From a virus: a DNA stretch of 12,455 nt. The DNA lies in the UHGV virus genome UHGV-0098743; one strand, given 5' to 3'. The notes below the pieces were generated by a model. That model was not told the origin of the DNA. It worked only from the letters and a program-made list of their open reading frames with translations, and ran no database searches. This document shows positions 1 through 12,455 of the stretch, piece by piece. The first letter of the stretch is position 1, and each line of letters starts with the position of its first letter. A program made the translations under genes and the position numbers.

Positions 1-28
1 TGTGAACTGGTCGTTCTGACCATCAACG

Positions 29-52
29 AAAAAGCCCACATCTGTGGGCTTT
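29..52 (-). terminator. Putative Rho-independent terminator in the flank beyond the ssrA-derived att core
   Basis: Inverted repeat gcccaca/tgtgggc (34-40 and 43-49) flanked by an A-run (29-33) and TTT (50-52); on the minus strand this reads as a stem-loop followed by TTTTT. Could act in both directions. Confidence 0.4.
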
Positions 53-61
53 CATGTTACC

Positions 62-77
62 AGGAGCCGCGGCTCCT
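62..77. repeat. Perfect 16-bp palindrome AGGAGCCG|CGGCTCCT
   Basis: Read directly; the two halves are exact reverse complements and are followed by TTT. Function unknown (hairpin or protein-binding site). Confidence 0.3.
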
Positions 78-179
78 TTGCGTATCCTTTTATGTCTCCT
101 CACCGTCTGGTCGGTGTTTTGCTGAGACTTCTAACTTCCTGTTTTTGTTGGTGTTGTCCTTACACCGTCCAATCATGAT

Positions 180-223
180 TGGTGGGCTGGCGGGAGTTGA
201 ACCCGCGTCCGAAATTCCTACAT
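180..223 (-). other. ssrA: tmRNA (ssrA) 3'-terminal fragment: prophage attachment-site core
   Basis: The reverse complement reads ATGTAGGAATTTCGGACGCGGGTTCAACTCCCGCCAGCCCACCA, matching the 3' end of E. coli tmRNA as I recall it (ending CGGGUUCAACUCCCGCCAGCUCCACCA) apart from a one-base difference near the CCA end. Only about 44 nt are present; a full 363-nt ssrA would overlap the integrase ORF, so this is a partial att-core copy. Confidence 0.7.
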
Positions 224-317
224 ACCATTTTTAGCCTAATAAAAACATACATTTACTTTTAAAATCATCACGTTATTGTTTTTTGTATTTGTCGGGTTTT
301 ATGTGATTTTAAGTCTG

Positions 318-337
318 TGCCGCCAAAGTGCCGCCAT
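318..337. repeat. Tandem direct repeat GTGCCGCCA x2 (11-bp period) between the integrase stop and the att core; candidate Int arm-type site
   Basis: GTGCCGCCA at 318-326 and 329-337, read directly; the position in the att arm next to the int 3' end. Function is inferred. Confidence 0.25.
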
Positions 338-340
338 AAA

Positions 341-1366
341 TTAACGGTTCCAGTTGAGATTGTGAAGCGGGTTTTTTGTCACTGCATCTTCCAGGTGGTC
401 GGGTGCGAAGTGGGCGTAAATCATTGTCATTTTAATATCGGCGTGGCCCAGAATATCGCGCAGTACCAGTATATTTCCGCCGTTCATCATAAAATGACTG
501 GCGAAAGTATGGCGCAGAACGTGGGTGCATTGGCCCTCTGGCAAGTCAATGCTTGCCCGCTTGACTGCACGCTCAAAGGCTTTTCTGCATGGCGTGAATA
601 ACTTCCCTCGGTTCTTTGGTAACTCGTCATACAGCGCCTGAGATATAGGAACCGTTCGGTTTTTCTTGCCCTTTGTTTTGGTGTAGGTGATTCGGTATTT
701 AGATAACTGATGGCCCTGCAGGTTTTCGGCTTCACTCCAGCGGGCGCCGGTAGCTAAGCAGATTTTTGCAATCATGAGCAGGCTGGGGTTTTCTGAATCA
801 GCGCAGGCATCCAGCAGGCGTTTAATTTCTTCCGGCGCCAGGAACGCCAGTTCCCCCTCTGCGATTTTAAATGTTGGAAGCCCGGCGAGTGGGTTGGGGG
901 CTGACCAGTGGCCCAGCTTTTTCAGCGTGCCAAAAACTGATGATAGGTTGCGTTGTTCAAGGTTTACCGTGCGGGGCTTAACTGGCGACATAGGCAAGCC
1001 ATCTTCATTTTTGACTTCACCTTTTAGGCGTGCTTCACGGTATTTTGTAAAGTCACCGGCAGTCAGCTCCGAGGCAATGGGATCACCCAGGCCATTACAA
1101 ATAATGTTAAGTTTTGCCATCAGGCGCTTGGGGTCAGCAAGAGTCTGTCCGTAAAGTGAATGCCACTGCTTAATTACTTCTGACAATTGGCGCCGATCAT
1201 CCTTTTCGCCTAGCCATGGCTTTTTGTTCACTTCATCCATTGTGAAGTTTTCGAATGCTATGGCCTCGCCTTTCGTCGCAAATTGCTTGCGCACGCGCTT
1301 GCCATCGCGCCCGCTAGGGTAGCACTCACACAACCATTTCCCGTTTGGCTGTTTTCTGATGGTCAT
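341..1366 (-). CDS. int: Tyrosine recombinase / phage integrase (P2 Int-like), 341 aa
   Basis: Full-length ORF; the C-terminal catalytic region has HVLRHTFASHF and LGHADIKMTMIYAHF (R-H-R-Y signature of tyrosine recombinases). Lies next to the ssrA-derived att core and is transcribed toward it, as in P2/186-type prophages. ATG at 1366..1364. Confidence 0.93.
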   Translation of the reverse strand: MTIRKQPNGKWLCECYPSGRDGKRVRKQFATKGEAIAFENFTMDEVNKKPWLGEKDDRRQLSEVIKQWHSLYGQTLADPKRLMAKLNIICNGLGDPIASELTAGDFTKYREARLKGEVKNEDGLPMSPVKPRTVNLEQRNLSSVFGTLKKLGHWSAPNPLAGLPTFKIAEGELAFLAPEEIKRLLDACADSENPSLLMIAKICLATGARWSEAENLQGHQLSKYRITYTKTKGKKNRTVPISQALYDELPKNRGKLFTPCRKAFERAVKRASIDLPEGQCTHVLRHTFASHFMMNGGNILVLRDILGHADIKMTMIYAHFAPDHLEDAVTKNPLHNLNWNR

Positions 1367-1367
1367 A

Positions 1368-2000
1368 TCAAAGGCTCTTAATAACTTTTAAGACGTGGCC
1401 TACAACCTCGATATCATCCAGGCTGCACTCAAAAGATGATTCATCTTGATGAACTACCAATCTGTTTCCGGGGATACGGGTTAACTTCACAATACTTTTT
1501 ATTCCATCAATATCGACCAACCACACCCCATTTACTGGTGGTGTTTGGCTGCGATCCACTAGGTATGAATCACCACCGGTATTTACTAAGAGTAAGTTAC
1601 TGGAATTGGAAGGAAGCAAGCTGCTGTCAATGATTGCTTTACCTGTATCCACCAAAGAGCCGCTAGAAAGTGTCACTTTGTCAATTTCGGGAGAAACAAG
1701 GTCAGAAAGGTGTTTAACTTTGCCGGAGTTCACGAAATTGATATCTTTTTGCATGTCAATGTTTGAACCCGGCTCGCCTTGCCCTGTGGTAAGCCAGAGT
1801 AAAGAAACGCCTGTCTCAAGAGCGCACTGAATTACCCATTCTGCAGGGAAACTATCTCTTAAGTATCTGTTTGCCATGGTGCTTTTAGATGCGCCAAGAT
1901 GGTCGCACAATTGCTGTCTTGATTTGAAATCGTAGGCTGCCATTAGCCTATGGATGGCCTCTCTACCCCCGGTGTTCTCGCCTGTCTTTACTTGTATCAT
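1368..2000 (-). CDS. cI: CI-like immunity repressor (phage 186 CI type: N-terminal HTH, C-terminal S24-peptidase-like fold), 210 aa
   Basis: N-terminal segment QQLCDHLGASKSTMANRYL looks like an HTH. The C-terminal half has the topology of lambda CI/LexA C-domains (GGDSY, VKL, VVGHVLKV). Its stop lies 1 nt from the int start (cI-int operon) and it is divergent from the cox/cII operon. Whether the Ser/Lys dyad is catalytically competent cannot be judged by eye. Confidence 0.8.
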   Translation of the reverse strand: MIQVKTGENTGGREAIHRLMAAYDFKSRQQLCDHLGASKSTMANRYLRDSFPAEWVIQCALETGVSLLWLTTGQGEPGSNIDMQKDINFVNSGKVKHLSDLVSPEIDKVTLSSGSLVDTGKAIIDSSLLPSNSSNLLLVNTGGDSYLVDRSQTPPVNGVWLVDIDGIKSIVKLTRIPGNRLVVHQDESSFECSLDDIEVVGHVLKVIKSL

Positions 2001-2012
2001 TTTTTAATCCTA

Positions 2013-2041
2013 TTGACGTATCAAATATTGGATCGTAGTAT
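2013..2041 (+). promoter_or_regulatory. Candidate sigma70 early lytic promoter (pR/Pe-like) for the cox-cII operon
   Basis: TTGACG (2013-2018), 17-bp spacer, TAGTAT (2036-2041); about 80 bp upstream of the cox-like start and overlapping operator repeat R1. Confidence 0.45.
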
Positions 2042-2067
2042 CTTTTCGTATCAACTCTTGAATCGTA
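2017..2067. promoter_or_regulatory. Two 21-bp direct-repeat operator candidates (R1 2017-2037, R2 2047-2067) in the cI / cox intergenic switch region
   Basis: R1 CGTATCAAATATTGGATCGTA and R2 CGTATCAACTCTTGAATCGTA match at 18 of 21 positions, with centres 30 bp apart; each has internal partial dyad symmetry (TCAA...TTGA). R1 contains a GATC. A possible leftward promoter for cI (TTGATA -35 at 2054..2049, CAATAT -10 at 2030..2025 on the minus strand) overlaps them. Confidence 0.5.
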
Positions 2068-2119
2068 TAAAACAAGATAAAACGACGTAAACCAAACCTT
2101 AACCGAGAGATACTGCACT

Positions 2120-2368
2120 ATGAGCACTGATATTTCAATTCGTGTACCAAAAGTGATAGCGACGCCAGCCGAGTTTGCTAAGTGGGAAGGGTATTCCCGT
2201 GGTTCTGTTTATCAGATGATTCATAACGGTAAATTGGCTAACTACATTGAAAAGAAAGAAAAAAACAAAGGCCGCGTATTCATCCTTTACCTCAAGTACA
2301 AAAAAGACCAAGCAAGCAAAAACATGGACAAGTCTGCATTCAATTACAACGTTGTAGTTGGTTGTTAA
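2120..2368 (+). CDS. Cox/Apl-like excisionase and switch regulator, 82 aa
   Basis: First gene of the rightward operon, divergent from cI. The segment PAEFAKWEGYSRGSVYQMIHNGKL resembles the HTH region of P2 Cox (EFAKLIGKSTGAVRRMIDKGKL). RBS GAGAG upstream. Confidence 0.7.
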   Translation: MSTDISIRVPKVIATPAEFAKWEGYSRGSVYQMIHNGKLANYIEKKEKNKGRVFILYLKYKKDQASKNMDKSAFNYNVVVGC

Positions 2369-2400
2369 GTTCAATTATGTGAACTTTTGAGGTATGAAAC

Positions 2401-2910
2401 ATGTTTGATTATAAGATTTCCAAACATCCGCATTTTGATGAAGCCTGCCGGGCTTTCTCGCTGCGTCACAACATGGCGAAGCTGGCAGAACGCGCAGGAA
2501 TGAATGTCCAGACGCTGCGCAACAAGCTGAACCCGGAGCAACCGCATCAACTTACCCCGCCGGAGATCTGGCTGCTGACTGATATCACAGAAGACTCAAC
2601 GCTGGTTGACGGTTTTCTGGCTCAAATCCATTGCCTGCCGTGCGTGCCATTGAATGAAGTGGCAAAAGAGAAGCTGCCGCATTACGTCATGAGCGCTACT
2701 GCTGAAATCGGACGTGTTGCTGCCGGTGCCGTATCGGGTGATGTGAAAACCACCGCAGGCCGCCGCGATGTTATCAGCAGCATTAACTCTGTTACTCGTC
2801 TGATGGCACTGGCTGCCGTTTCGATGCAGGCGCGTTTACAGGCTAACCCGGCGATGGCAAGCGCGGTGGATACCGTGACGGGCCTCGGCGCTTCGTTTGG
2901 TCTGATCTGA
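2401..2910 (+). CDS. cII: Phage 186 CII-like transcriptional activator (CP76 family), 169 aa
   Basis: Same length as 186 CII (169 aa) and same position (second gene after apl/cox). N-terminal HTH-like segment NMAKLAERAGMNVQTLRNKLNP. Strong RBS GAGGT 7 nt upstream. Confidence 0.75.
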   Translation: MFDYKISKHPHFDEACRAFSLRHNMAKLAERAGMNVQTLRNKLNPEQPHQLTPPEIWLLTDITEDSTLVDGFLAQIHCLPCVPLNEVAKEKLPHYVMSATAEIGRVAAGAVSGDVKTTAGRRDVISSINSVTRLMALAAVSMQARLQANPAMASAVDTVTGLGASFGLI

Positions 2911-2917
2911 GGTGGTT

Positions 2918-3118
2918 ATGCTGACTAAAGAACCCTCTTTTGCGTCACTTCTCATAAAGCAAAGCCCGGCAATGCACTACGGTCACGGCTGGATCATGGG
3001 GAAGGATGGCAAACGCTGGCACCCGTGCCGCTCTCAGGATGAACTGCTGGCTGACCTGTCCACAACCAAACAGGGGAAATCATGGCTATTGAAGGCGCTG
3101 CAGCGACTGTCCCATTAA
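2918..3118 (+). CDS. Hypothetical small early protein, 66 aa (alternative GTG start at 2912)
   Basis: ORF in the early operon directly after cII; GGTGG just upstream of the ATG. Sits where 186 has the fil/dhr host-takeover genes, but I see no recognisable motif. Confidence 0.45.
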   Translation: MLTKEPSFASLLIKQSPAMHYGHGWIMGKDGKRWHPCRSQDELLADLSTTKQGKSWLLKALQRLSH

Positions 3119-3423
3119 GCCCCGGTAAAAGGCTGGACGCATTGAATCATATTGCGGAATTGAGAGCTAAAGTGTTTGGCCTAAATATTGAGCCGGAGCT
3201 TGAAAGGTTTATTAAAGATATGCGCGATCCACGCGACGTAAATAATAAACAGAATGAGCGGGCACTGGCAGCCATTTTTTATATGGCAAAAATTCCGGCA
3301 GAACGTCACGGCGTCAATATTAGTGATCTGACTACTGACGAAAAGCGGGAACTGGTGAAAGCAATGAATCATTTTCGTGCAGTGGTGAGCTTATTTCCCA
3401 AACGGCTAACCATGCCGAATTAA
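3082..3423 (+). CDS. Hypothetical early protein, 113 aa
   Basis: ORF with RBS AGGGGA; overlaps the upstream ORF by 37 nt; no recognisable motif. Confidence 0.5.
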   Translation: MAIEGAAATVPLSPGKRLDALNHIAELRAKVFGLNIEPELERFIKDMRDPRDVNNKQNERALAAIFYMAKIPAERHGVNISDLTTDEKRELVKAMNHFRAVVSLFPKRLTMPN

Positions 3424-3490
3424 TCCACAACAGAAATTAATGGCGTAAACCCGCCGGGCTTCTTATTGCCCAAATTCAGGAGAAACAACT

Positions 3491-3724
3491 ATGCGAAATA
3501 TTGAAACCCGTACCACTAAAACCGGACCAGATGATGCTGGTCTCAACCTGTTGCTGACTGAGGCACGCAAAGAAGAACGCCGGGGACGCGCAGATGTGAT
3601 GGCTGCGCGTCTGGATTCTTTAGCTGCTCGTATCGTGTCACGTCAGCTTAACCACACGGAAGCGGCTGAGCTGCTGCGTCAGGAAGCTGTGAAGATTCAG
3701 AACGAAGCGCAGGAGATCCACTGA
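3491..3724 (+). CDS. Hypothetical early protein, 77 aa, probably helical
   Basis: Good RBS CAGGAGAAA; its stop overlaps the next start (TGATG). Confidence 0.55.
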   Translation: MRNIETRTTKTGPDDAGLNLLLTEARKEERRGRADVMAARLDSLAARIVSRQLNHTEAAELLRQEAVKIQNEAQEIH

Positions 3725-3951
3725 TGGCTGATTCAATGGACCTTGTACAGCAGCGCGTTGAAGAAGAACGCCCGCGCCATATCCACACCGCCCGCAATAA
3801 AACGCCGGGCGTTTCCCGTGTTCTCTGCATTGATTGCGATGCGCCGATCCCGCCAGCTCGCCGCCGCGCCATTCCGGGCGTGCAGTGCTGCGTCACTTGT
3901 CAGGAAATCGCAGAGCTGAAAGGCAAACACTACAACGGGGGTGCTGTATGA
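3724..3951 (+). CDS. TraR/DksA-family C4 zinc-finger protein (P2 orf82-like), 75 aa
   Basis: CIDC-x17-CCVTC gives the C-x2-C...C-x2-C spacing typical of phage TraR/DksA zinc fingers; it is translationally coupled to neighbours on both sides. Confidence 0.75.
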   Translation: MADSMDLVQQRVEEERPRHIHTARNKTPGVSRVLCIDCDAPIPPARRRAIPGVQCCVTCQEIAELKGKHYNGGAV

Positions 3952-4808
3952 GCACTATTCTGAAATGGGCGGGAAATAAAACCTCCATCATGCCGGAACT
4001 GATTAAGCATCTTCCTGCTGGCACGCGACTGGTTGAACCTTTCGCGGGTTCATGCGCTGTAATGATGGCGACAGACTATCCTCATTATCTTGTCGCGGAT
4101 ATTAACCCAGACCTGATAAATCTTTTTAAGCATATTGCATTTGACTGCGAGAAATTTATTTCAAATTCAAAAGGATTCTTTTCAGGCACAAATAGCGCTG
4201 AGTCTTATTACAACATCCGTCAGGATTTTAATCATTCGGCTGAAACCACCGATTTCTGGAAAGCTGTATTTTTCCTTTATCTTAATCGCCATGGTTATCG
4301 TGGGTTGTGCCGCTATAATTTGAGCGGTCATTTTAATGTCCCTTACGGTAATTATAAAAATCCGTATTTTCCTGAAAGTGAAATACGCGCTTTTGCAGAA
4401 AAGGCTCAACGCGCAACGTTTATCTGTGCCAGCTATGACGAAACACTGGCGCTGCTGCAGGCTGGTGATGTTGTTTATTGTGATCCGCCATACGATGGCA
4501 CATTTAGCGGTTATCACACTGCCGGTTTTACAGAAGACGATCAGTATCATCTGGCGTCTATTCTTGAGCGCCGGTCATCAGAAGGTCATCCGGTTATCGT
4601 GTCCAACAGCGACACGTCCCTGACCCGTTCGCTTTATCGTAATTTTACCCGCCATCGCATCACTGCAAAGCGCAGCATGGGTGTGGCTGCCGGCGAGAGT
4701 AAATCTGCAGCAGAAATCATCGCCACAAAATCAGCTGGCTGGTTTGGTGTCGATTTGGCGTCCGGTCCAGATATCTCGGTGGAAACTGAGGTGCGGGCGT
4801 GGCAGTGA
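3948..4808 (+). CDS. dam: DNA adenine methyltransferase (Dam-like, N6-adenine, D12 class), 287 aa
   Basis: N-terminus [38 protein letters not shown] parallels E. coli Dam (LKWAGGK...LVEPFVGAGSV); catalytic motif [15 protein letters not shown] (DPPY). ATG at 3948 overlaps the upstream stop (ATGA). The six-frame ORF starting at 3834 is an in-frame upstream extension and is unlikely to be the true start. Confidence 0.9.
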
Positions 4809-6238
4809 GTAAATTCACATTACATAATGCACCAACCACCGGCGGCTCGAATGAGGCCGCCGTGGCCTTTTCATGGAATAACCCCAAAAAAGCGGTTAAC
4901 CCATATCTGGACCCGGCGGAAGTTGCGCCGGGGTCTGCGCTTTCAAACCTGATTGCTCTTTACGCTGCGGATAACGAGCAGGAGCAGCTGCGCCGTGAGG
5001 CGCTGAGCGATGAGGTCTGGGAACGCTATTTCTTCAATGAATCCCGTGATCCTGTCCAGCGCGAAATGGAGCAGGACCGGCTGATTAGTCGTGCCAAAAT
5101 GGCGCGCGAGCAGCAGCGTTTTAATCCCGATCTGGTCATTCTGGCTGACGTTAACGCCATGCCGTCCCATATCAGCAAGCCTCTGCTGGAGCGGATTAAA
5201 TATTTCCATAGCCTGGGCAGAGCAAAAGCCTATTCCCGCTACCTGCGCGAAACAATTAGGCCCTGTCTTGAGCGGCTGGAGCGCGTGCGTGACAGTCAGG
5301 TGTCTGCCTCTTTCCGGTTCATGGCAAGTCATGACGGGCTGGAGGGGCTGCTGGTACTGCCTGAAATGAATCAGGATCAGGTCAAGCGTCTTTCCACGCT
5401 GGTTGCGGCTCATATGAGCATGTGTCTTGATGCGGCCTGCGGTGATCTGTTTGTCAGCGACGATGTTAAACCAGAAGAAATCCGCCAGGCATGGGAAAGG
5501 GTTGCAGCAGAGGCGATGCGCCTTGAGATCATCCCGCCTGCGTTTGAGCAGTTACGCCGCAAAAAGCGTCGACGCAAGCCGGTGCCCTATGAACTGATCC
5601 CACCGTCGCTGGCGCGGATGCTGTGCGCGGACTGGTGGTATCGCAAATTGTGGCAGATGCGCTGCGAGTGGCGGGAGGAACAGCTGCGTGCTGTCTGCCT
5701 GGTCAACAAAAAAGCGTCCCCGTATGTCAGCTATGAAGCCGTGATCCACAAGCGCGAGCAGCGCCGCAAATCGCTGGAGTTCTTCCGCTCACATGAGCTG
5801 GTCAACGAAGACGGTGACACGCTGGACATGGAAGACGTGGTGGCGTATGTCCGCAACAACCCGGATAAGCTGCACCTTTTCGTTGATAACGGCTCACTGG
5901 TGGCAACCGGTGCCAGCTCTATGTCATGGGAATACCGCTACACCCTGAACGTTGTGATCGAGGATTTCAGCGGCGACCAGAATCTGCTGATGGCTCCCGT
6001 GTTGCTGTGGCTCAGCGAAAATCAGGCGGACGCCATCAACAACCCGGAGCTGCGCGAAAAACTGTTCACCTTTGAAGTGGATATTCTGCGCAATGATGTG
6101 TGCGATATCAGCCTGAATCTGCAACTGACGGAGCGTGTACTGGTCAGCACTGACGGCGGTATCTCAACGGTTGAGGCGGAGCCAGAACCCGACGAGCCAG
6201 AAGAAATGTGGACGGTGAAACGTGGAAAATCTGCATAA
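4799..6238 (+). CDS. Hypothetical protein, 479 aa, in the position where P2/186 carry replication gene A; function unknown
   Basis: Long ORF with host-like codon usage, GTG start overlapping the dam stop. I could not find a Walker A, HUH or other catalytic motif. Contains the basic stretch [17 protein letters not shown] and an acidic C-terminal tail [11 protein letters not shown]. Its stop overlaps the S-like gene by 17 nt. Confidence 0.7.
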
Positions 6239-6668
6239 AGTGGATGAGTGGCTGACAGCGCTGCTGGCGAATCTGGAGCCGGCTGCGCGTCAGCACATGA
6301 TGTGTGAACTGGCGCAGCAGCTGCGTCGAAATCAGCAGAACAACATCCGCCTGCAGCGCAACCCCGACGGAACCGGCTACGAGCCGCGCCGGGTAACAGC
6401 CCGCAGCAAAAAGGGGCGCATCAAACGCCAGATGTTTGCAAAACTTCGCACCACCAAATACCTGAAAGCTGCAGCGAGCGCGAACTCTGCGAGCGTGCAG
6501 TTTGTGGGACAAGTGCAGCGTATCGCTCGGGTACACCATTACGGCTTACGTGATCGTGTTAGCCGCAATGGACCATTAGTAATTTATAGAGAACGAAGGT
6601 TACTTGGATTCAATGAGAATAATGATTGCATTAAAAATATATTAATTATGTCTTTATTTAATACATAA
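6222..6668 (+). CDS. S: Phage virion morphogenesis / tail-completion protein (P2 gpS / Mu gpG family), 148 aa; C-terminus possibly altered by the downstream insertion
   Basis: Pattern [28 protein letters not shown] ... [20 protein letters not shown] resembles the gpS/gpG family as I remember it. The last ~20 codons ([18 protein letters not shown]) lie in abruptly AT-rich DNA. Confidence 0.55.
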
Positions 6669-6680
6669 TGTATCGTGGTA

Positions 6681-6718
6681 AAAAATAGTAAAGCCAAATG
6701 GCTGGCTAATTGCCAGCC
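6681..6718 (-). terminator. Putative Rho-independent terminator downstream of the ariB-like gene
   Basis: Stem GGCTGGC (6700-6706), loop TAATT, stem GCCAGCC (6712-6718); on the minus strand it is followed by the U-rich tract AUUUGGCUUUACUAUUUUU. Confidence 0.5.
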
Positions 6719-6724
6719 GTAACT

Positions 6725-7582
6725 CTATGAAATTAGTGATATTTTTTGATTGTAGTAATCATAATCCGCATGTTCTTCAGTAAAGAATAATTCAAAAGCC
6801 GTTAGCATATTTGAATAAAAACTATCTTTTGATATTGCAGTTTTTCTCTCATTTTTAGCTAAGTAATTGGTTATGAATCTTAATGATGCTGAGAATAGAA
6901 AGTGCCCCTTTATCCAATGCGTTATGCAAGTGTTGGCAGGAAATTGAATGTTGTTTTTTTCTGCTAACCCTACATTTCTGAAATCATCAGGAAGGGTTTG
7001 AATATAAGCATTTATCTTATCTTGACATGTTTTGTAAGAGTTTTTTGATTGCATAAATCTATCGCATGAATCACCTACTACGGAATAGCCACGCTGATTT
7101 AAATGATTGTAAATATCTAAGGCAATTAGGTCTTCAATATTGTTATAAAACTCTAATAGCCAGGAGTTTATATTTATTCCTTGGATTTCTTTGGCACTGT
7201 ATCTTCCCATGTGTTTTAACACACGGGATAGGACTTTCTCATCGACTATAGTATTTTCAATTGAGTAACCTTTTGTATAGATGATGTTTGTATGATTTAC
7301 TAAGTTGGATGAAAAATGATTCAGATCTGCATCGCGGGCAACAATTGCGTTTATTTGTCCTGATGTGATTCGCTCAATATAAGGTTCTAATGCTTCACAC
7401 CCTCCAACTTCTTGCACTTCAACACTTAGTCGACCATTTTTTTTGAAAACTATTTCCCAAAATCCAATATCATCCTCACCTTCAACATATACCATGATAT
7501 CAGCATCATAAAACATGCTGATAACATTTTCCGCCTCGTCAGACCAATTAAAGTTATCTGTTCGAATCTCATTATTGGACAT
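6725..7582 (-). CDS. ariB: DUF4435/TOPRIM-like (OLD-family nuclease-like) protein, AriB-like effector candidate of a PARIS-type defence pair, 285 aa from ATG 7582 (alternative GTG start at 7612)
   Basis: N-terminal motif MVYVEGEDD followed by AIVARDAD, i.e. the acidic E...DxD arrangement of TOPRIM/OLD nuclease domains. AT-rich codon usage. Its start overlaps the upstream ATPase gene stop by 11 nt (ATGTCCAATAA). Domain identity is from memory of family motifs, not a search. Confidence 0.75.
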   Translation of the reverse strand: MSNNEIRTDNFNWSDEAENVISMFYDADIMVYVEGEDDIGFWEIVFKKNGRLSVEVQEVGGCEALEPYIERITSGQINAIVARDADLNHFSSNLVNHTNIIYTKGYSIENTIVDEKVLSRVLKHMGRYSAKEIQGININSWLLEFYNNIEDLIALDIYNHLNQRGYSVVGDSCDRFMQSKNSYKTCQDKINAYIQTLPDDFRNVGLAEKNNIQFPANTCITHWIKGHFLFSASLRFITNYLAKNERKTAISKDSFYSNMLTAFELFFTEEHADYDYYNQKISLIS

Positions 7583-8825
7583 TGACAAGTTTCTCCATGT
7601 TAAAAATTGCACTCCTGTATTTTGAAGCTACTTCTGGAGAATGTGTGGCAGCTATTACTTGTGCATTGGGATTGAGTTTTTTGATTGCTGGGATAATGTT
7701 TCTTTGCCATTGAATATGTAGGGAGAGTTCAGGCTCATCTGTTAGGAAAATATATTGTTTTTCTCTTTGTAATAGGGTTTCTATGAATAAAATAAGTAAT
7801 TGCTTCTCACCTGAAGATAAATTTTCCTGAATTATTGGTCCGTAAGTATTCTTTATGGAAAGTATTCCGCCTTGAAAGTCAAATTCCTTATCAGTAATAA
7901 ATTCTTTTAAAATACTTAAAAATTGTTCAATGGGAGCGAAAACTAAAGATGTTTTTTCTTTAGATTTTAAAGACATTCTAATTATTTTTTGTGTCTTTCT
8001 TAGCGCTTCAATTGAGCGGATGTCAAAACCATCTTTTTTATTTTGTTTTAATTCTGCAATGGTGTGATCAATAGTGTCAACATGGAAATTTATTTTCCGA
8101 CGGACATTCATATCAATAGCGTTTAGTTGTGTGTACGCACTTAAAAGGTTTTGTTTTTCTTCCTCCTTGTTAAATTGAATGTTGTACGCCTTATCATCAA
8201 TATCATCTTTACTATATAGAATAGATGCTAAAACTTCTTTTTGAAGTTCTAATGCAATATCTCTCGCTCGTTGAGATAATTCAAGTTGATATTTTGTTAA
8301 TTCCTGCATTAATTCTGATAGTTTATAATCGACAGGGTTGATAAAGCGAGAGCCGTATTTGTCTCTAACCTCAAAGTCGTCACTATTCCTTAGTCTATAG
8401 ACGGATAAAGATGAGAGTGAAACCAGTTTTGCTAATTCTGCTCTTAACTCCTCAGTCTCTTCTTGTGCTCTGCGTCTATAACTGAGGGAGATTCTTCTGT
8501 CATCGGCGTTGAATAGTCGGATGGTATGTTTTTTTGATGAAAGTTGATACTCTATTTTAGAGAACGGTGATGCATCACTCTCGATTTTCTTAATTTTTAT
8601 TGTCTTAGTTTTCTTTTTGTCCTTTAGTTTTATTTCGGCACTATTGAAATCATTGTTGTTAATGCCATCAAGGTCAATTGATAAAATTGAATGCAAAATA
8701 TTCATAAAAGTTGTTTTGCCGGTTCCATTCCTTCCAATGATGATGTTTACATCATCATTAAAAGAGCAAAGAGCATTTAATCTTTGCCAAAAACCATTGA
8801 TAGCGATGCTTTGTATTTTATACAT
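7572..8825 (-). CDS. ariA: ABC-type ATPase (AAA_15/AAA_21, OLD/SMC-like), AriA-like sensor candidate of a PARIS-type defence pair, 417 aa from ATG 8825 (TTG at 8828 possible)
   Basis: Walker A GRNGTGKTT near the N-terminus; a long insert domain; C-terminal ABC signature-like SSGEKQLL, Walker B IFLTDEPELSLH and H-loop ATHSPEV. Strong RBS AAGGAG 7 nt before the ATG. AT-rich. Confidence 0.82.
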   Translation of the reverse strand: MYKIQSIAINGFWQRLNALCSFNDDVNIIIGRNGTGKTTFMNILHSILSIDLDGINNNDFNSAEIKLKDKKKTKTIKIKKIESDASPFSKIEYQLSSKKHTIRLFNADDRRISLSYRRRAQEETEELRAELAKLVSLSSLSVYRLRNSDDFEVRDKYGSRFINPVDYKLSELMQELTKYQLELSQRARDIALELQKEVLASILYSKDDIDDKAYNIQFNKEEEKQNLLSAYTQLNAIDMNVRRKINFHVDTIDHTIAELKQNKKDGFDIRSIEALRKTQKIIRMSLKSKEKTSLVFAPIEQFLSILKEFITDKEFDFQGGILSIKNTYGPIIQENLSSGEKQLLILFIETLLQREKQYIFLTDEPELSLHIQWQRNIIPAIKKLNPNAQVIAATHSPEVASKYRSAIFNMEKLVNVQ

Positions 8826-8868
8826 CAACTTACTCCTTGTTTTGGTTGAGTCGAACTTATCAACTGTT

Positions 8869-8886
8869 TGTACCAGCTATAACACA
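8869..8886 (+). promoter_or_regulatory. TGT-N12-ACA dyad upstream of V: possible Ogr/Delta-type late-activator site (P_V-like)
   Basis: TGT (8869-8871), 12 nt, ACA (8884-8886), read directly. P2 late promoters carry this dyad near -55. Here the dyad centre is only about 56 bp from the V start codon, so the spacing is tight and this may be coincidence. Confidence 0.3.
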
Positions 8887-8915
8887 ATTATGCTGGTTCG
8901 TACGAATCATTTCAA
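8886..8915 (-). promoter_or_regulatory. Candidate sigma70 promoter for the ariA-ariB operon
   Basis: On the minus strand: TTGAAA (8915..8910), 18-bp spacer, ATAATT (8891..8886); predicted leader about 55 nt to the ariA ATG. Confidence 0.35.
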
Positions 8916-8933
8916 ATGTTCAATATAGGCAGT

Positions 8934-9512
8934 ATGAACACACAACTTACCGAAATCATGCGCCTTATCACCAATCTGATCCGTACCGGCACTGTGACCG
9001 AAGTGGACCGGAAAAAGTGGCTGTGTCGGGTGAAAGTGGGCGAGCTTGAAACTAACTGGATTAACTGGCTGACGCTGCGCGCCGGTGGTGCCCGTACATG
9101 GTGGTGTCCGTCGCCGGATGAGCAGGTGGTGTTGCTGAGCATGGGCGGCAATCTGGAAACCGCTTTTGTGCTGCCCGCTATCTACTCCAATCAGTTTCCG
9201 CCACCGTCGGATTCCGTGGACGGCTGCGTGACGGAGTACCCGGACGGGGGATGGTTTGAGTATGAACCCGCCACCGGACGGTGGCATGTCAGGGGCATCA
9301 AATCCATGGTGATCGAGGCATCAGACAGTGTCACCTACAAAACCGGTGAGTTTGTGGTGGAGGCTGACACCACGCGCATTAACAGCGAGGTGGTGATCAA
9401 TGGCGGCGTCACCCAGGGCGGCGGCGCAATGAGTTCTAACGGGATCGTAGTTGATGACCATGAGCATACTGGCGTTCTGAAAGGCGGCGACAACACGGGG
9501 GGACCGGTATGA
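8934..9512 (+). CDS. V: Baseplate assembly protein V (P2 gpV-like spike), 192 aa (ORF opens at 8916; 8934 is the homologous start)
   Basis: N-terminus MNTQLTEIMRLITNLIRTGTVTEVD parallels P2 gpV (MNTLANIQELARALRNMIRTG...); conserved WLTLRAGGARTWWCPS and C-terminal HEHTG. Stop overlaps the W start (ATGA). Confidence 0.85.
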   Translation: MNTQLTEIMRLITNLIRTGTVTEVDRKKWLCRVKVGELETNWINWLTLRAGGARTWWCPSPDEQVVLLSMGGNLETAFVLPAIYSNQFPPPSDSVDGCVTEYPDGGWFEYEPATGRWHVRGIKSMVIEASDSVTYKTGEFVVEADTTRINSEVVINGGVTQGGGAMSSNGIVVDDHEHTGVLKGGDNTGGPV

Positions 9513-9868
9513 CGTTGTATATCGGTATGAGCAGGAATGACGGGCAGACCATTGCAGATACAGACCATCTGCGCCAGTCGGTGCGGGATATTCTGCTGAC
9601 GCCGCAGGGCAGTCGTCTTGCGCGTCGGGAATATGGTTCCCTGCTGTCTGCCCTGATAGACCAGCCGCAGACCCCGGCGCTGCGCCTGCAGATTATGTCT
9701 GCGGTCTATGTGGCGCTGAACCGTTGGGAGCCGCGCCTTACGCTGGACTCCATCACCATCAACGGCAATTTTGATGGCTCTATGGTGGTTGAACTTACCG
9801 GACACGGCAATAACGGCGCACCGGTTTCCCTTTCCGTATCAACAGGAGCAGACAATGGCAGTCATTGA
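9509..9868 (+). CDS. W: Baseplate assembly protein W (P2 gpW / GP25-like), 119 aa
   Basis: Size and position between V and J; gpW-like N-terminal region (DLRQSVRDILLTPQGSRLARREYGS). Confidence 0.85.
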   Translation: MTLYIGMSRNDGQTIADTDHLRQSVRDILLTPQGSRLARREYGSLLSALIDQPQTPALRLQIMSAVYVALNRWEPRLTLDSITINGNFDGSMVVELTGHGNNGAPVSLSVSTGADNGSH

Positions 9869-10763
9869 CCTTTCCCGGCTACCGCCGCCGCAGATTGTGG
9901 ATGTGCCGGACTTTGAGGCATTGCTGGCAGAACGCAAGGCCGCCTTTGTGGCCCTCCATCCGGCTGATGAACAGGAGGCTGTTATGCGCACGTTAGCGCT
10001 GGAGTCAGAACCTGTCACCAAACTGCTGCAGGAAAATACTTACCGCGAAATCCTGCTGCGTCAGCGAATTAATGAGGCTGCGCAGGCGGTCATGGTGGCC
10101 TATTCCATGGGAAATGACCTTGAACAACTGGCAGGTAACTGCAACGTGAAGCGCCTGACGGTAGTCCCTGCAGATAATGACTCGGTGCCGCCGGTCGCCG
10201 CAGTGATGGAAAGTGATGAAGCATTACGCCAGCGCATTCCTGCAGCATTTGAGGGGCTGTCCGTTGCAGGGCCGACGGGAGCCTATGAGTTCCACGCCAG
10301 AAGTGCCGACGGGCGGGTGGCTGATGCCAGCGCAACCAGTCCGGCACCGGCAGAGGTGGTGCTTACCGTGCTGAGCCGTGAGGGGGACGGTACGGCAGGG
10401 GCTGACCTGCTGGCGGTGGTTGAGCAGGCGCTTAACAGTGAAAAAGTTCGCCCGGTGGCAGACCGCCTGACGGTGCGCAGCGCAGAAATTATTCCGTACA
10501 GCGTGGACGCAACGATCTTCCTTTATCCGGGGCCGGAGGCTGAGCCGGTGATGGCAGAAGCAAAAGCCAGTCTGCAGAAATACATCGCCAGTCAGACGCG
10601 GCTGGGACGTGATATCCGCCGCAGCGCCATTTATGCCGCGTTGCATGTGGAGGGCGTCCAGCGTGTGGAGCTGGCGTCCCCGCAGGGTGATGTGGTGCTG
10701 GATAAGACGCAGGCGGCATCCTGTACTGAATGGAGCATCATCAACGGGGGCACGGATGAATAG
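9855..10763 (+). CDS. J: Baseplate assembly protein J (P2 gpJ-like), 302 aa
   Basis: Starting at ATG 9855 (RBS AGGAG at 9844-9848) gives 302 aa, the same as P2 gpJ; conserved order V-W-J-I-H. The longer ORF from 9771 is an in-frame extension overlapping W. Confidence 0.88.
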   Translation: MAVIDLSRLPPPQIVDVPDFEALLAERKAAFVALHPADEQEAVMRTLALESEPVTKLLQENTYREILLRQRINEAAQAVMVAYSMGNDLEQLAGNCNVKRLTVVPADNDSVPPVAAVMESDEALRQRIPAAFEGLSVAGPTGAYEFHARSADGRVADASATSPAPAEVVLTVLSREGDGTAGADLLAVVEQALNSEKVRPVADRLTVRSAEIIPYSVDATIFLYPGPEAEPVMAEAKASLQKYIASQTRLGRDIRRSAIYAALHVEGVQRVELASPQGDVVLDKTQAASCTEWSIINGGTDE

Positions 10764-11361
10764 CCTGTTGCCGCCGGGTTCGTCGCCGCTTGAGCGCCGA
10801 CTGGCGCAGACCTGCAGCGGGATTTCCGATCTGCAGGTATCGCTGCGTGATTTGTGGAATCCGTCAATCTGCCCGGTCAGATTCCTGCCTTATCTGGCCT
10901 GGGCGTTTTCTGTTGACCGCTGGGATGAGAGCTGGACAGAAAGCGTCAAGCGCCGCGTTGTGCAGGACGCTTTTTATATCCATCAGCACAAGGGGACAAC
11001 CAGCGCCGTGCGGCGCGTGGTGGAGCCGTTCGGCTTTCTGATCCGCATCATTGAGTGGTGGCAGACTGGCGAAATACCAGGGACGTTCCGTCTGGATATT
11101 GGCGTGCAGGACCAGGGCATAACAGAAGAAACCTATCTGGAGCTGGAGCGCCTGATCGGTGACGCCAAACCGTGCAGCCGTCACCTGGTTGGTATGTCCA
11201 TCAACCTGCAGACAGGTGGCCCGTATTTTGTGGGCGCAGCCACCTACACCGGCGAAGAAATCACGATCTACCCGTATATCAACGAAACCATTATTTCCGG
11301 CGGCACCGCTTATGAGGGCGGGGCGGTCCATGTTATTGACACGATGAGAGTGAACCCATGA
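10756..11361 (+). CDS. I: Baseplate/tail protein I (P2 gpI-like), 201 aa
   Basis: Position between J and H; ATG at 10756 overlaps the J stop; the longer ORF from 10609 is an out-of-context extension. Confidence 0.82.
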   Translation: MNSLLPPGSSPLERRLAQTCSGISDLQVSLRDLWNPSICPVRFLPYLAWAFSVDRWDESWTESVKRRVVQDAFYIHQHKGTTSAVRRVVEPFGFLIRIIEWWQTGEIPGTFRLDIGVQDQGITEETYLELERLIGDAKPCSRHLVGMSINLQTGGPYFVGAATYTGEEITIYPYINETIISGGTAYEGGAVHVIDTMRVNP

Positions 11362-12455
11362 GCGCAAAATTTTACACCCTGCTGACGGATATCGGCGCGG
11401 CGAAACTGGTAAGCGCCGCCGCGCTCGGTGTCCCACTAAAAATTACCCATATGGCGGTGGGCAGCGGTGGTGGTATGCTGCCCACACCCAACGCGCAACA
11501 GACCGCGTTAGTGGCTGAGGAACGCCGCGCAGCGCTGAATATGCTGTATATCGACCCACAGAACAGCAGCCAGATTATTGCTGAGCAGGTGATCCCGGAA
11601 AATGAGGGCGGGTGGTGGATTCGTGAAGTCGGCCTGTTTGATGAAACAGGTGCGCTAATTGCTGTGGGAAACTGCCCGGAGAGCTACAAGCCGAAGCTGG
11701 CGGAGGGCAGCGGACGCACGCAGACCGTGCGAATGGTACTGATTACCAGCAGCACGGATAACATCACCCTGAAAATTGACCCCGCTGTGGTTCTGGCAAC
11801 CCGCAAATATGTGGATGATAAGGTGCTGGAACTTAAGGTGTATGTGGATGACCTGATGGCAAAGCATCTTGCTGCGGTTGATCCTCATTCGCAATATGCA
11901 CCAAAAGACAGTCCGACTCTGACAGGCATGCCTAAAACGCCAACGCCACCGGCAGGAAACAACAGCACCCTGATTGCCAGTACAGCCTTTGTACAGGCCG
12001 CTATTCTTGCCATGATAGGTGGCGCACCGGCAACGCTGGATACGCTGAAAGAAATTGCGGCAGCTATCAATAATGACCCGAATTTCAGTACCACCATTAA
12101 CAATGCGCTGGCACTGAAAGCACCACTGGCAAGCCCAGCCCTGACCGGAACGCCAACGGCTCCGACTGCGGCGCAGACTGTGAACAATACGCAGATTGCC
12201 ACTACAGCATTTGTGAAGGCAGCTATTGCCGGGCTGGTTGGTTCATCGCCGGAGGCGCTGGACACACTGAATGAACTGGCAGCTGCGCTGGGGAATGATC
12301 CTAACTTTGCGACAACAGTGATGAACGCGCTGGCGGGGAAACAGCCCCTCGATGCCACTTTGACTAACCTCAGCGGGAAAAGTGTTTCAGCCCTTCTACA
12401 ATACCTTGGTTTGGGAGAAGCGGCAACGAGGAACGTCGGAACGGATACCGGGCAA
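11358..12455 (+). CDS. H: Tail fibre protein H (P2 gpH-like), 5' part only; the ORF runs off the end of the window
   Basis: N-terminus MSAKFYTLLTDIGAAKLVSAA...MAVGSGGGMLP...ESYKPKLAEGSGRTQTVRMV...YVDDKV closely parallels the conserved P2 gpH N-terminal domain. No stop through 12455 (366 codons). Absent from the ORF track only because it is open-ended. Confidence 0.88.
   Translation, partial: MSAKFYTLLTDIGAAKLVSAAALGVPLKITHMAVGSGGGMLPTPNAQQTALVAEERRAALNMLYIDPQNSSQIIAEQVIPENEGGWWIREVGLFDETGALIAVGNCPESYKPKLAEGSGRTQTVRMVLITSSTDNITLKIDPAVVLATRKYVDDKVLELKVYVDDLMAKHLAAVDPHSQYAPKDSPTLTGMPKTPTPPAGNNSTLIASTAFVQAAILAMIGGAPATLDTLKEIAAAINNDPNFSTTINNALALKAPLASPALTGTPTAPTAAQTVNNTQIATTAFVKAAIAGLVGSSPEALDTLNELAAALGNDPNFATTVMNALAGKQPLDATLTNLSGKSVSALLQYLGLGEAATRNVGTDTGQ
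11910..12353 (+). repeat. Tandem duplicated ~74-codon tail-fibre repeat module inside H
   Basis: Units starting SPTLTGMPKTPTPP... (11910) and SPALTGTPTAPTAA... (12132) align over 74 aa with about half the residues identical, including TAFV.AAI, LDTL.E.AAA, NDPNF.TT and NALA.K. Confidence 0.7.

Follow-up and report, generated by a model that had tools for sequence, protein, structure and literature searches.

A Fels-2/186-type prophage of Escherichia coli very probably disabled by a single 10,740-bp deletion

How does a prophage of the P2 family come to pass from its early operon through one long reading frame straight into its tail genes? The question is raised by the virus genome UHGV-0098743, a stretch of 12,455 nucleotides (nt) that is called the window here and whose positions serve as coordinates throughout. 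Genes were assigned by a listing of open reading frames (ORFs) and by profile searches with Pfam, PHROGs and PADLOC, and from these assignments the region can be identified as the left end of a Fels-2/186-type P2-family prophage of Escherichia coli at the ssrA site. An earlier note on this DNA had described an early operon that is followed by a 479-amino-acid (aa) ORF, by S and by V-W-J-I-H, an order that the ORF and profile searches confirmed. Its observation that terminase, portal and capsid genes are absent between the early operon and S also held in these searches, which found no lysis genes there either. As explanation it had offered either a large internal deletion that left a defective prophage, or a natural satellite- or tailocin-like element. 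We think that one illegitimate-recombination deletion very probably disabled the prophage and left a fusion of the replication gene A with the tail gene R, A'::'R, as its scar.

The 479-aa reading frame and the missing interval

The 479-aa ORF (4799-6238) had been taken as unknown in the earlier note, which has to be revised, as both of its parts belong to known families. Pfam finds Phage_GPA at aa 193-356 (positions 1-160 of the 321-position profile) and P2_Phage_GpR at aa 348-464 (positions 15-133 of 133), and PHROGs gives matching assignments, an origin-nicking family at aa 5-355 and then a tail terminator family at aa 344-474. In megablast comparisons, eight complete E. coli genomes have a replication endonuclease gene whose start is 100% identical to the first 1,044 nt of the ORF, and in all eight this match ends abruptly at query nt 1044. 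The R-S-...-H block of those same prophages matches the window from position 5839 on, at 99.8-99.9% identity. Judged by these comparisons, the ORF is a deletion scar that links A (residues 1-348) in frame with R (residues 15-146):

4799-5842, plus strand: A', the first 348 codons of A
5843-6238, plus strand: 'R, codons 15-146 of R, in frame with A' (Pfam P2_Phage_GpR and alignment to R of L001)

L001 denotes the intact sibling prophage of E. coli 702/18 (NZ_CP074701.1), which was used as reference and sits between ypjA and ssrA. In its left part it carries int, CI, the early operon, dam, A, two small ORFs (one of the DinI family) and a further small ORF. These are followed by Q, P, O, N, M, L, X, holin, lysozyme, lysA-like, lysB, lysC, R and S; after S come a DUF4435 gene, an AAA ATPase gene, V, W, J, I, H, G and an invertible segment with its invertase, and the right end consists of FI, FII, E, E', T, U, D and ogr. 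Window positions 1-5842 correspond to L001 3422-9264 with 99.85% identity, and positions 5839-12444 to L001 20001-26607 with 99.83% identity. Compared base by base, the two arms overlap on GGTG at window 5839-5842, a 4-bp microhomology that is present at both parental sites, and exactly 10,740 bp of L001, from A codon 349 to R codon 14, are missing from the window. The suggestion of a large internal deletion is thereby borne out, with its extent, its microhomology and its in-frame fusion defined against a 99.8%-identical sibling.

This intact sibling prophage occurs in at least eight complete E. coli genomes, and one intact relative agrees with window 179-5842 at every position (100% identity). 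Because the products of the retained genes (16 of 16) differ from those of L001 by 0-1 aa, and because of this fully identical relative, the deletion appears to be recent or very recent; no other gene of the window shows decay. An origin by recombination between two different prophages was considered as well and is unnecessary, as in eight genomes the two arms are found within a single prophage, 10.74 kb from each other.

What the fusion means for the two proteins can be read from the intact forms. A has 802 aa. Its HUH motif, HWHLL (aa 449), and its tyrosine motif, YIAKYISK (aa 503), follow the breakpoint at aa 348 and are missing from the window. The lack of an HUH motif, which had already been noticed, is confirmed and finds its reason here, since HWHLL falls in the deleted part of A. 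The possibility that the ORF might be a complete replication initiator had been named as a point that could overturn the deletion; only 348 of the 802 A residues are present, and the deletion stands. The A'::'R protein is therefore, as predicted from the missing motifs, a dead replication endonuclease, in which an R without residues 1-14 is attached to 348 residues of A. At NCBI it is deposited as WP_220403627.1 with the label "replication endonuclease [Escherichia coli]".

The deleted interval contained far more than the ends of these two genes. Apart from the C-terminal part of A with the HUH/Tyr catalytic region and, according to the L001 annotation, the first 14 R codons, it held the 62-aa ORF, the DinI-family ORF and the further small ORF, the head and packaging genes Q, P, O, N, M, L and X (portal, terminase, scaffold and capsid among them), and the lysis genes holin, lysozyme, lysA-like, lysB and lysC. 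No lysis cassette was present in the gene calls of the loci L002-L006 and L015, the latter being from GCA_019585165.1. The replication origin of P2 and 186 is located inside gene A, and the corresponding origin is probably gone. A search for cos was carried out with the 19-mers of P2 and of 186. It returned one partial match to the 186 sequence (15 of 19 positions), GGCGTGGCGGGGATACGAG at L001 11428-11446, which is a candidate only and lies at the expected place between DinI and Q; in neither the window nor L015 did the same search detect a cos-like sequence. With cos placed by this partial-match candidate, cos and Q-P-O-N-M-L all fall in the deleted interval, and none of them is found in the window or in L015.

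The interval also seems to have included a regulatory module. A perfect LexA-box consensus, CTGTAATTATAAACAG, is found at L001 10726-10741, 50 bp upstream of the pair of the 62-aa and DinI-family ORFs. The whole module (L001 10726-11224), which comprises this 62-aa ORF (phrog_698) and the 77-aa DinI-family ORF, the latter matching just the C-terminal half of phrog_189, is 83.6% identical in Fels-2 and conserved also in SEN8 and SopEPhi. SOS induction of 186 and Fels-2 is mediated by a Tum antirepressor that is under LexA control and encoded at the same position. The pair resembles a Tum-type SOS antirepressor module that has been split, and the SOS induction switch was probably lost too. Furthermore, the late promoter that serves S in P2 lies upstream of O, and by analogy the native late promoter of S would have fallen in the deleted interval, so that S should be transcribable only by read-through from the CI-repressed early promoter.

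An AT-rich segment from DinI to the portal gene (L001 11225-12064) with a small Cys-rich ORF and an 89-aa ORF (phrog_1090) was lost as well. It occupies the place of the main published P2 defence hotspot, which is described between A and Q (PMC13586616) and falls in the deleted interval here.

Taken as a sequence of events, A codon 348 would have been joined to R codon 15 at GGTG with the loss of 10,740 bp, and the two halves, being in frame by chance, would have given the 479-aa ORF. The remnant should then be unable to replicate, to package DNA, to build heads or to lyse the cell, and a second deletion of 5,303 bp, present in the complete genome of this lineage and described below, would make tail formation impossible as well. 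Plausibly still working are CI immunity, Int and Apl acting on the att sites, the Dam methylase and an AriA/AriB defence cassette, so that the host might keep the benefits of defence and immunity without the risk of being killed by induction. Several points weigh against parts of this reading. The loss of the origin and of cos is taken from general P2/186 biology, and the evidence for cos consists of the partial match to the 186 sequence; the Tum-like role is deduced from what is known of Fels-2 and 186; the second deletion lies outside the window and was seen in L015, the sole genome of the lineage that reaches so far; and the deletion may be neutral and recent. None of the evidence contradicts the deletion itself.

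Related deletions in other E. coli prophages

Whether such deletions recur was addressed by a sensitive search among the 1,707 E. coli genomes with related A, R or S sequences, in six of which A lies within about 1.4 kb of R/S. These relatives are 186/Fels-2-like prophages, mostly at rcdA-ybjL, and the junction of each lineage is different:

EC596 (L017): A' of 544 aa, running into lysC
EC05 (L020): A' of 434 aa, running into lysC
EC556, EC571 and EC581 (L019 is EC556): in-frame fusion of A (about residues 1-409) to R (from about residue 48 to its end), 505 aa in EC556
LR-45 (L021): A' of about 288 aa, running into an R remnant
ECCNB20-2 (L018): a truncated dam, running into a truncated lysB

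Overall, at least six junctions differ, and two of them are in-frame A'::'R fusions. A selected domestication could be postulated on this basis, in which recurrent deletions from A to the lysis genes are favoured, CI and the defence genes of the tail slot are kept, and the A stump or the A'::'R fusion may interfere with incoming relatives. This view draws on at least five further independent junctions (EC596, EC05, EC556, LR-45 and ECCNB20-2), all of which keep the immunity region, S and the cargo between S and V. The cargo itself varies, with a PARIS-like system in EC596, an FRG-domain gene in EC556, SIR2 genes together with IS5 in EC05 and LR-45, and a 316-aa gene without assignment in ECCNB20-2, and it is never lost; conserved defence genes in defective P2 elements are also reported in the literature (PMC13586616). 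However, the query required A and R/S to be adjacent, so that the common pattern is in part a selection bias, and the arrangement is rare at six of 1,707 genomes. The further deletions differ as well: EC05 lacks the genes from a truncated V through a truncated T, and LR-45 lacks J and most of the block from the sheath gene to D, from which it follows that baseplate genes are not consistently retained. In-frame junctions, at 3 of about 7 events, do not exceed the expected one third, and an enrichment of such junctions was rejected on this count. We therefore regard a selected domestication as unlikely. A more specific form of it, in which the repeated deletions from A to R or to the lysis genes reflect positive selection and the A N-terminus or the A'::'R fusion acts as dominant-negative inhibitor of related incoming phages, appears less likely still, and we would hold it to be quite improbable. 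Broader interest would attach to the locus only with proof that the recurrent deletions from A to the lysis genes are under selection.

The notion of a conserved element family that combines an early operon with a tail was also rejected, given six of 1,707 genomes, junctions that all differ and the baseplate losses of EC05 and LR-45. The same losses bear on the proposal of the earlier note that the retained genes are a set from which the host would benefit. For CI and the PARIS-like cassette this is plausible; it finds no support for the baseplate genes, which disappeared in these other, independently decayed relatives.

The tail module and the remaining alternatives

The remainder of the element beyond H, where the earlier note had proposed to look for further genes, can be followed in L015. 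From H to attR, this locus carries G, the invertible fibre segment, the invertase, a gene for a 507-aa product, ogr, ssrA and smpB. No head, terminase or replication genes are present between H and attR in L015, and the deletion reading stands in this respect, too. The 507-aa product (L015 14291-15814) contains both Pfam Phage_sheath_1 and Phage_GPD. Relative to L001, a second deletion of 5,303 bp (L001 29965-35267) with a 3-bp CTG microhomology has joined in frame FI residues 1-242 to D residues 101-366, by which the C-terminus of the sheath, the tube (FII), E, E', the tape measure (T), U and D residues 1-100 were removed. This sheath::D protein is deposited as WP_259281233.1 and is found on 6 contigs. 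The co-occurrence of both deletions is seen directly in one genome only, and otherwise there are the contig counts, 6 for the sheath::D protein and at least 10 for the A'::'R protein. The tail module is incomplete: R is truncated and fused, and in L015 FI is fused to D, while FII, E, E', T and U are absent. The idea that tail function had been kept does not agree with a truncated and fused R and with an L015 that lacks tube, tape measure and U.

These results also decide on the tailocin that the earlier note had considered, that is, an R-type bacteriocin that keeps the tail, drops the head and releases killing particles. It is true that head and packaging genes are lacking and that S, V, W, J, I, H, G, the invertible fibre segment and ogr have been retained intact. 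With R-type tailocins such as the R-pyocins, which derive from P2-like tails, the element shares P2-family baseplate and fibre genes without head genes. Unlike these, it has no lysis cassette, tube or tape measure, and its R, sheath and D are truncated. Holin, lysozyme and lysB/C lie inside the deleted interval; R lacks 14 residues and is bound to 348 residues of A; the late promoter of S was presumably lost; and L015 has a truncated sheath, no tube, E/E', tape measure or U, and a D that lacks residues 1-100. The existence of a 99.8%-identical intact sibling moreover speaks for a very recent accident and not for an evolved architecture, and we consider a natural tailocin highly unlikely. It should be kept in mind that an automatic pipeline would enter the locus among the P2-like prophages, or might wrongly call it a tailocin.

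A satellite that is mobilised by a P2-family helper phage has as little to recommend it. Int, Apl and both att cores are intact, so that an excision is conceivable, and the P2-family regulators cII, TraR and ogr are kept. However, the putative cos lies in the deleted interval, and the 19-mer search brought up nothing like it in the window or in L015. Among Pfam and PHROGs matches and window ORFs there is no primase or replication gene besides the dead A stump, and no psu, sid or delta-like hijacking genes are present. The six of 1,707 genomes, with junctions that differ by lineage, likewise do not form a conserved element family. Lacking cos, a replication function and a lysis cassette, with R truncated and with the sheath::D fusion and the loss of tube, E, tape measure and U in L015, the element hardly qualifies as satellite or as tailocin, and in our view the single deletion is by far the better explanation.

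The junction itself recurs. An exact-protein look-up found the 479-aa protein on at least 10 contigs, and the carriers seen include the 4.67-Mb contig of GCA_019585165.1, GCA_052167735.1, two ENA metagenome assemblies, at least one of them from the human gut, and one Logan assembly. Compared with the window over as much as 12.4 kb, the carrier loci show no mismatch or a single one, and we regard the carriers as one clonal lineage. An exact search with 50 nt across the junction had no match in a contig collection, a result that carries no weight, since this collection has one genome per species. A chimeric join of two intact-prophage parts by an assembler, against which the window by itself would be insufficient and which would agree with the absence of the junction from all 5,426 complete RefSeq E. 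coli genomes, has a negligible probability, because an overlap of 4 bp is far too short for a mis-join and because assemblies made independently and with different assemblers, of isolates, of metagenomes and in Logan, contain the identical junction protein, one of the carriers being the 4.67-Mb contig.

Retained genes, defence cassette and known relatives

What the deletion left behind is a left end with a complete lysogeny switch, in which int-CI are divergent from apl-cII (Pfam, PHROGs) and att repeats flank the element. Apart from the two parts of the fusion, the following features were found, where "intact" refers to the comparison with L001:

186-223: attL core, a 38-bp direct repeat of the ssrA 3' end, exact word shared with the ogr-ssrA region of L015
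L015 16226-16263: attR copy of the 38-bp core
341-1366, minus strand: integrase, 341 aa, intact (Pfam Int_N and Phage_integrase; 0 aa differences from L001)
1368-2000, minus strand: CI repressor of the 186 type, 210 aa, intact (Pfam Phage_CI_repr and Phage_CI_C; identical to L001)
2120-2368, plus strand: apl/cox (Pfam, PHROGs)
2401-2910, plus strand: cII (Pfam, PHROGs)
2918-3118, plus strand: fil (Pfam, PHROGs)
3082-3423, plus strand: DUF5347 gene (Pfam, PHROGs)
3491-3724, plus strand: DUF2732 gene (Pfam, PHROGs)
3724-3951, plus strand: TraR/DksA gene (Pfam, PHROGs)
3948-4808, plus strand: dam (Pfam, PHROGs; orphan methyltransferase in PADLOC)
6222-6668, plus strand: S, tail completion and virion morphogenesis, 148 aa, intact (Pfam Phage_tail_S)
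6725-7582, minus strand: AriB-like DUF4435/TOPRIM gene, 285 aa
7572-8825, minus strand: AriA-like ABC/AAA_15 ATPase gene, 417 aa
8934-9512, plus strand: V, baseplate, intact (PHROGs, Pfam; identical to L001)
9509-9868, plus strand: W, baseplate, intact (PHROGs, Pfam; identical to L001)
9855-10763, plus strand: J, baseplate, intact (PHROGs, Pfam; identical to L001)
10756-11361, plus strand: I, baseplate, intact (PHROGs, Pfam; identical to L001)
11358-12455, plus strand: H, tail fibre, 5' part only, running off the window (gene calls in L002 and L015)

The 38-bp att core is found at both ends of the element, at the left end of the window and at the right end of L015, and ssrA is annotated beside ogr in L001. 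ARAGORN and Rfam reported nothing in the window, where attL carries just 38 bp of ssrA. With the att cores intact by sequence, an excision by Int and Apl is conceivable. Every gene of the early operon (2120-4808) is intact and every product identical to that of L001, and a promoter-like site precedes the operon at 2013-2041.

Between S and V, the window carries a gene pair with a GC content of about 33%, compared with about 55% around it. The best PADLOC model for the ATPase is AriA (1e-36), and Pfam assigns AAA_15 (3e-21), AAA_21 and SMC_N; its best match in the Protein Data Bank (PDB) is AriA (8ux9/8v45, 1e-17), restricted to the C-terminal 120 residues. For the second protein, the AriB-like assignment comes from Pfam (DUF4435, 5e-26) and PADLOC (AriB, 9e-23), and a PDB match by sequence was not found. 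The two genes overlap at 7572-7582 on the same strand, a promoter-like site is located ahead of the AriA gene (8915-8887, minus strand) and a terminator-like hairpin just past the AriB gene (6718-6700, minus strand). From its gene content, the pair is predicted to be a self-contained PARIS-like AriA/AriB cassette. It is also present in the intact siblings with 0-1 aa differences, which means that it is phage cargo older than the deletion and unrelated to it. With PARIS it shares an ATPase gene (ABC/AAA_15) that overlaps a DUF4435/TOPRIM gene, AriA and AriB as best PADLOC models, and the character of AT-rich cargo, here phage-borne. It differs in being divergent from the solved system and in occupying the S-V slot instead of the A-Q or P4 hotspots. 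For PARIS, a trigger-dependent release of AriB and a tRNA cleavage that aborts infection are described in two sources (PMC11464382, PMC12409363).

The gap between S and V (window 6669-8933, with equivalents in L017-L021) can be regarded as a variable cargo slot, and it agrees with a published defence hotspot at the tail genes of P2-like phages (PMC13586616). Two of the relatives possess additional cargo. EC05 has a gene with a SNIPE-associated domain between int and CI (L020 5929-7605), and ECCNB20-2 has a 353-aa hypothetical gene between att and int (L018 6132-7193). These sites match minor P2 hotspots (PMC13586616).

Among characterized phages, the closest frame is given by the Fels-2/SopEPhi/SEN8/186 type of the Peduoviridae at ssrA, with which the element has in common the gene order and content of each retained block, the 186-type CI, apl, cII and fil, and the ssrA site. 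Identity of the A' part is highest with SEN8 (96%), followed by SopEPhi (95%) and Fels-2 (93%). In contrast to these phages, 10.74 kb are missing here, and the complete genome has in addition lost 5.3 kb (sheath codon 243 to D codon 100); judged by its gene content, the element is a non-viable derivative and not a phage. The phenomenon is ordinary prophage decay and as such of a kind already known. Grounded and cryptic prophages in general have been reviewed (PMC6379469), and defective P2-like prophages with conserved defence genes, in which the replication gene is often lost, have been described (PMC13586616, NAR 2026). The difference from the latter is that the inactivating event is resolved exactly here, as one deletion with a 4-bp microhomology and an in-frame fusion ORF. 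The locus is a clean, base-pair-resolved example of a one-step grounding by microhomology-mediated deletion that left immunity and a PARIS-like cassette intact, and it fits the published view that defective P2-like elements carry defence genes stably. For databases it is relevant that the NCBI name "replication endonuclease" for WP_220403627.1 covers a dead A'::'R chimera, and that WP_259281233.1 is a sheath::D chimera.

Some smaller observations concern the retained tail genes. The start of V is ambiguous, with 198 aa (ATG at 8916) or 192 aa (8934) depending on the assembly, the RefSeq form having 192 aa. A TGT-N12-ACA dyad, which we take to be the motif of Ogr/Delta-activated late promoters, is present at 8869-8886 upstream of V, oddly near its start codon; two such dyads were found in the window and three are expected by chance, so that the count is not significant. 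The window and ten other siblings (L007-L016) have an S of 148 aa, whereas that of 702/18 (L001 20384-20818) is annotated with 144 aa, and the change at its 3' end is private to this reference sibling. The identity among the siblings, otherwise 99.9%, breaks at about 12420-12444 within the 3' part of H. Further on, L015 11650-14207 contains fragments of fibre and fibre-assembly genes in opposite orientations together with a Hin/Cin-type invertase (Resolvase and HTH_7), and the sequences identify an invertible host-range fibre segment beyond H that was caught in different orientations across assemblies.

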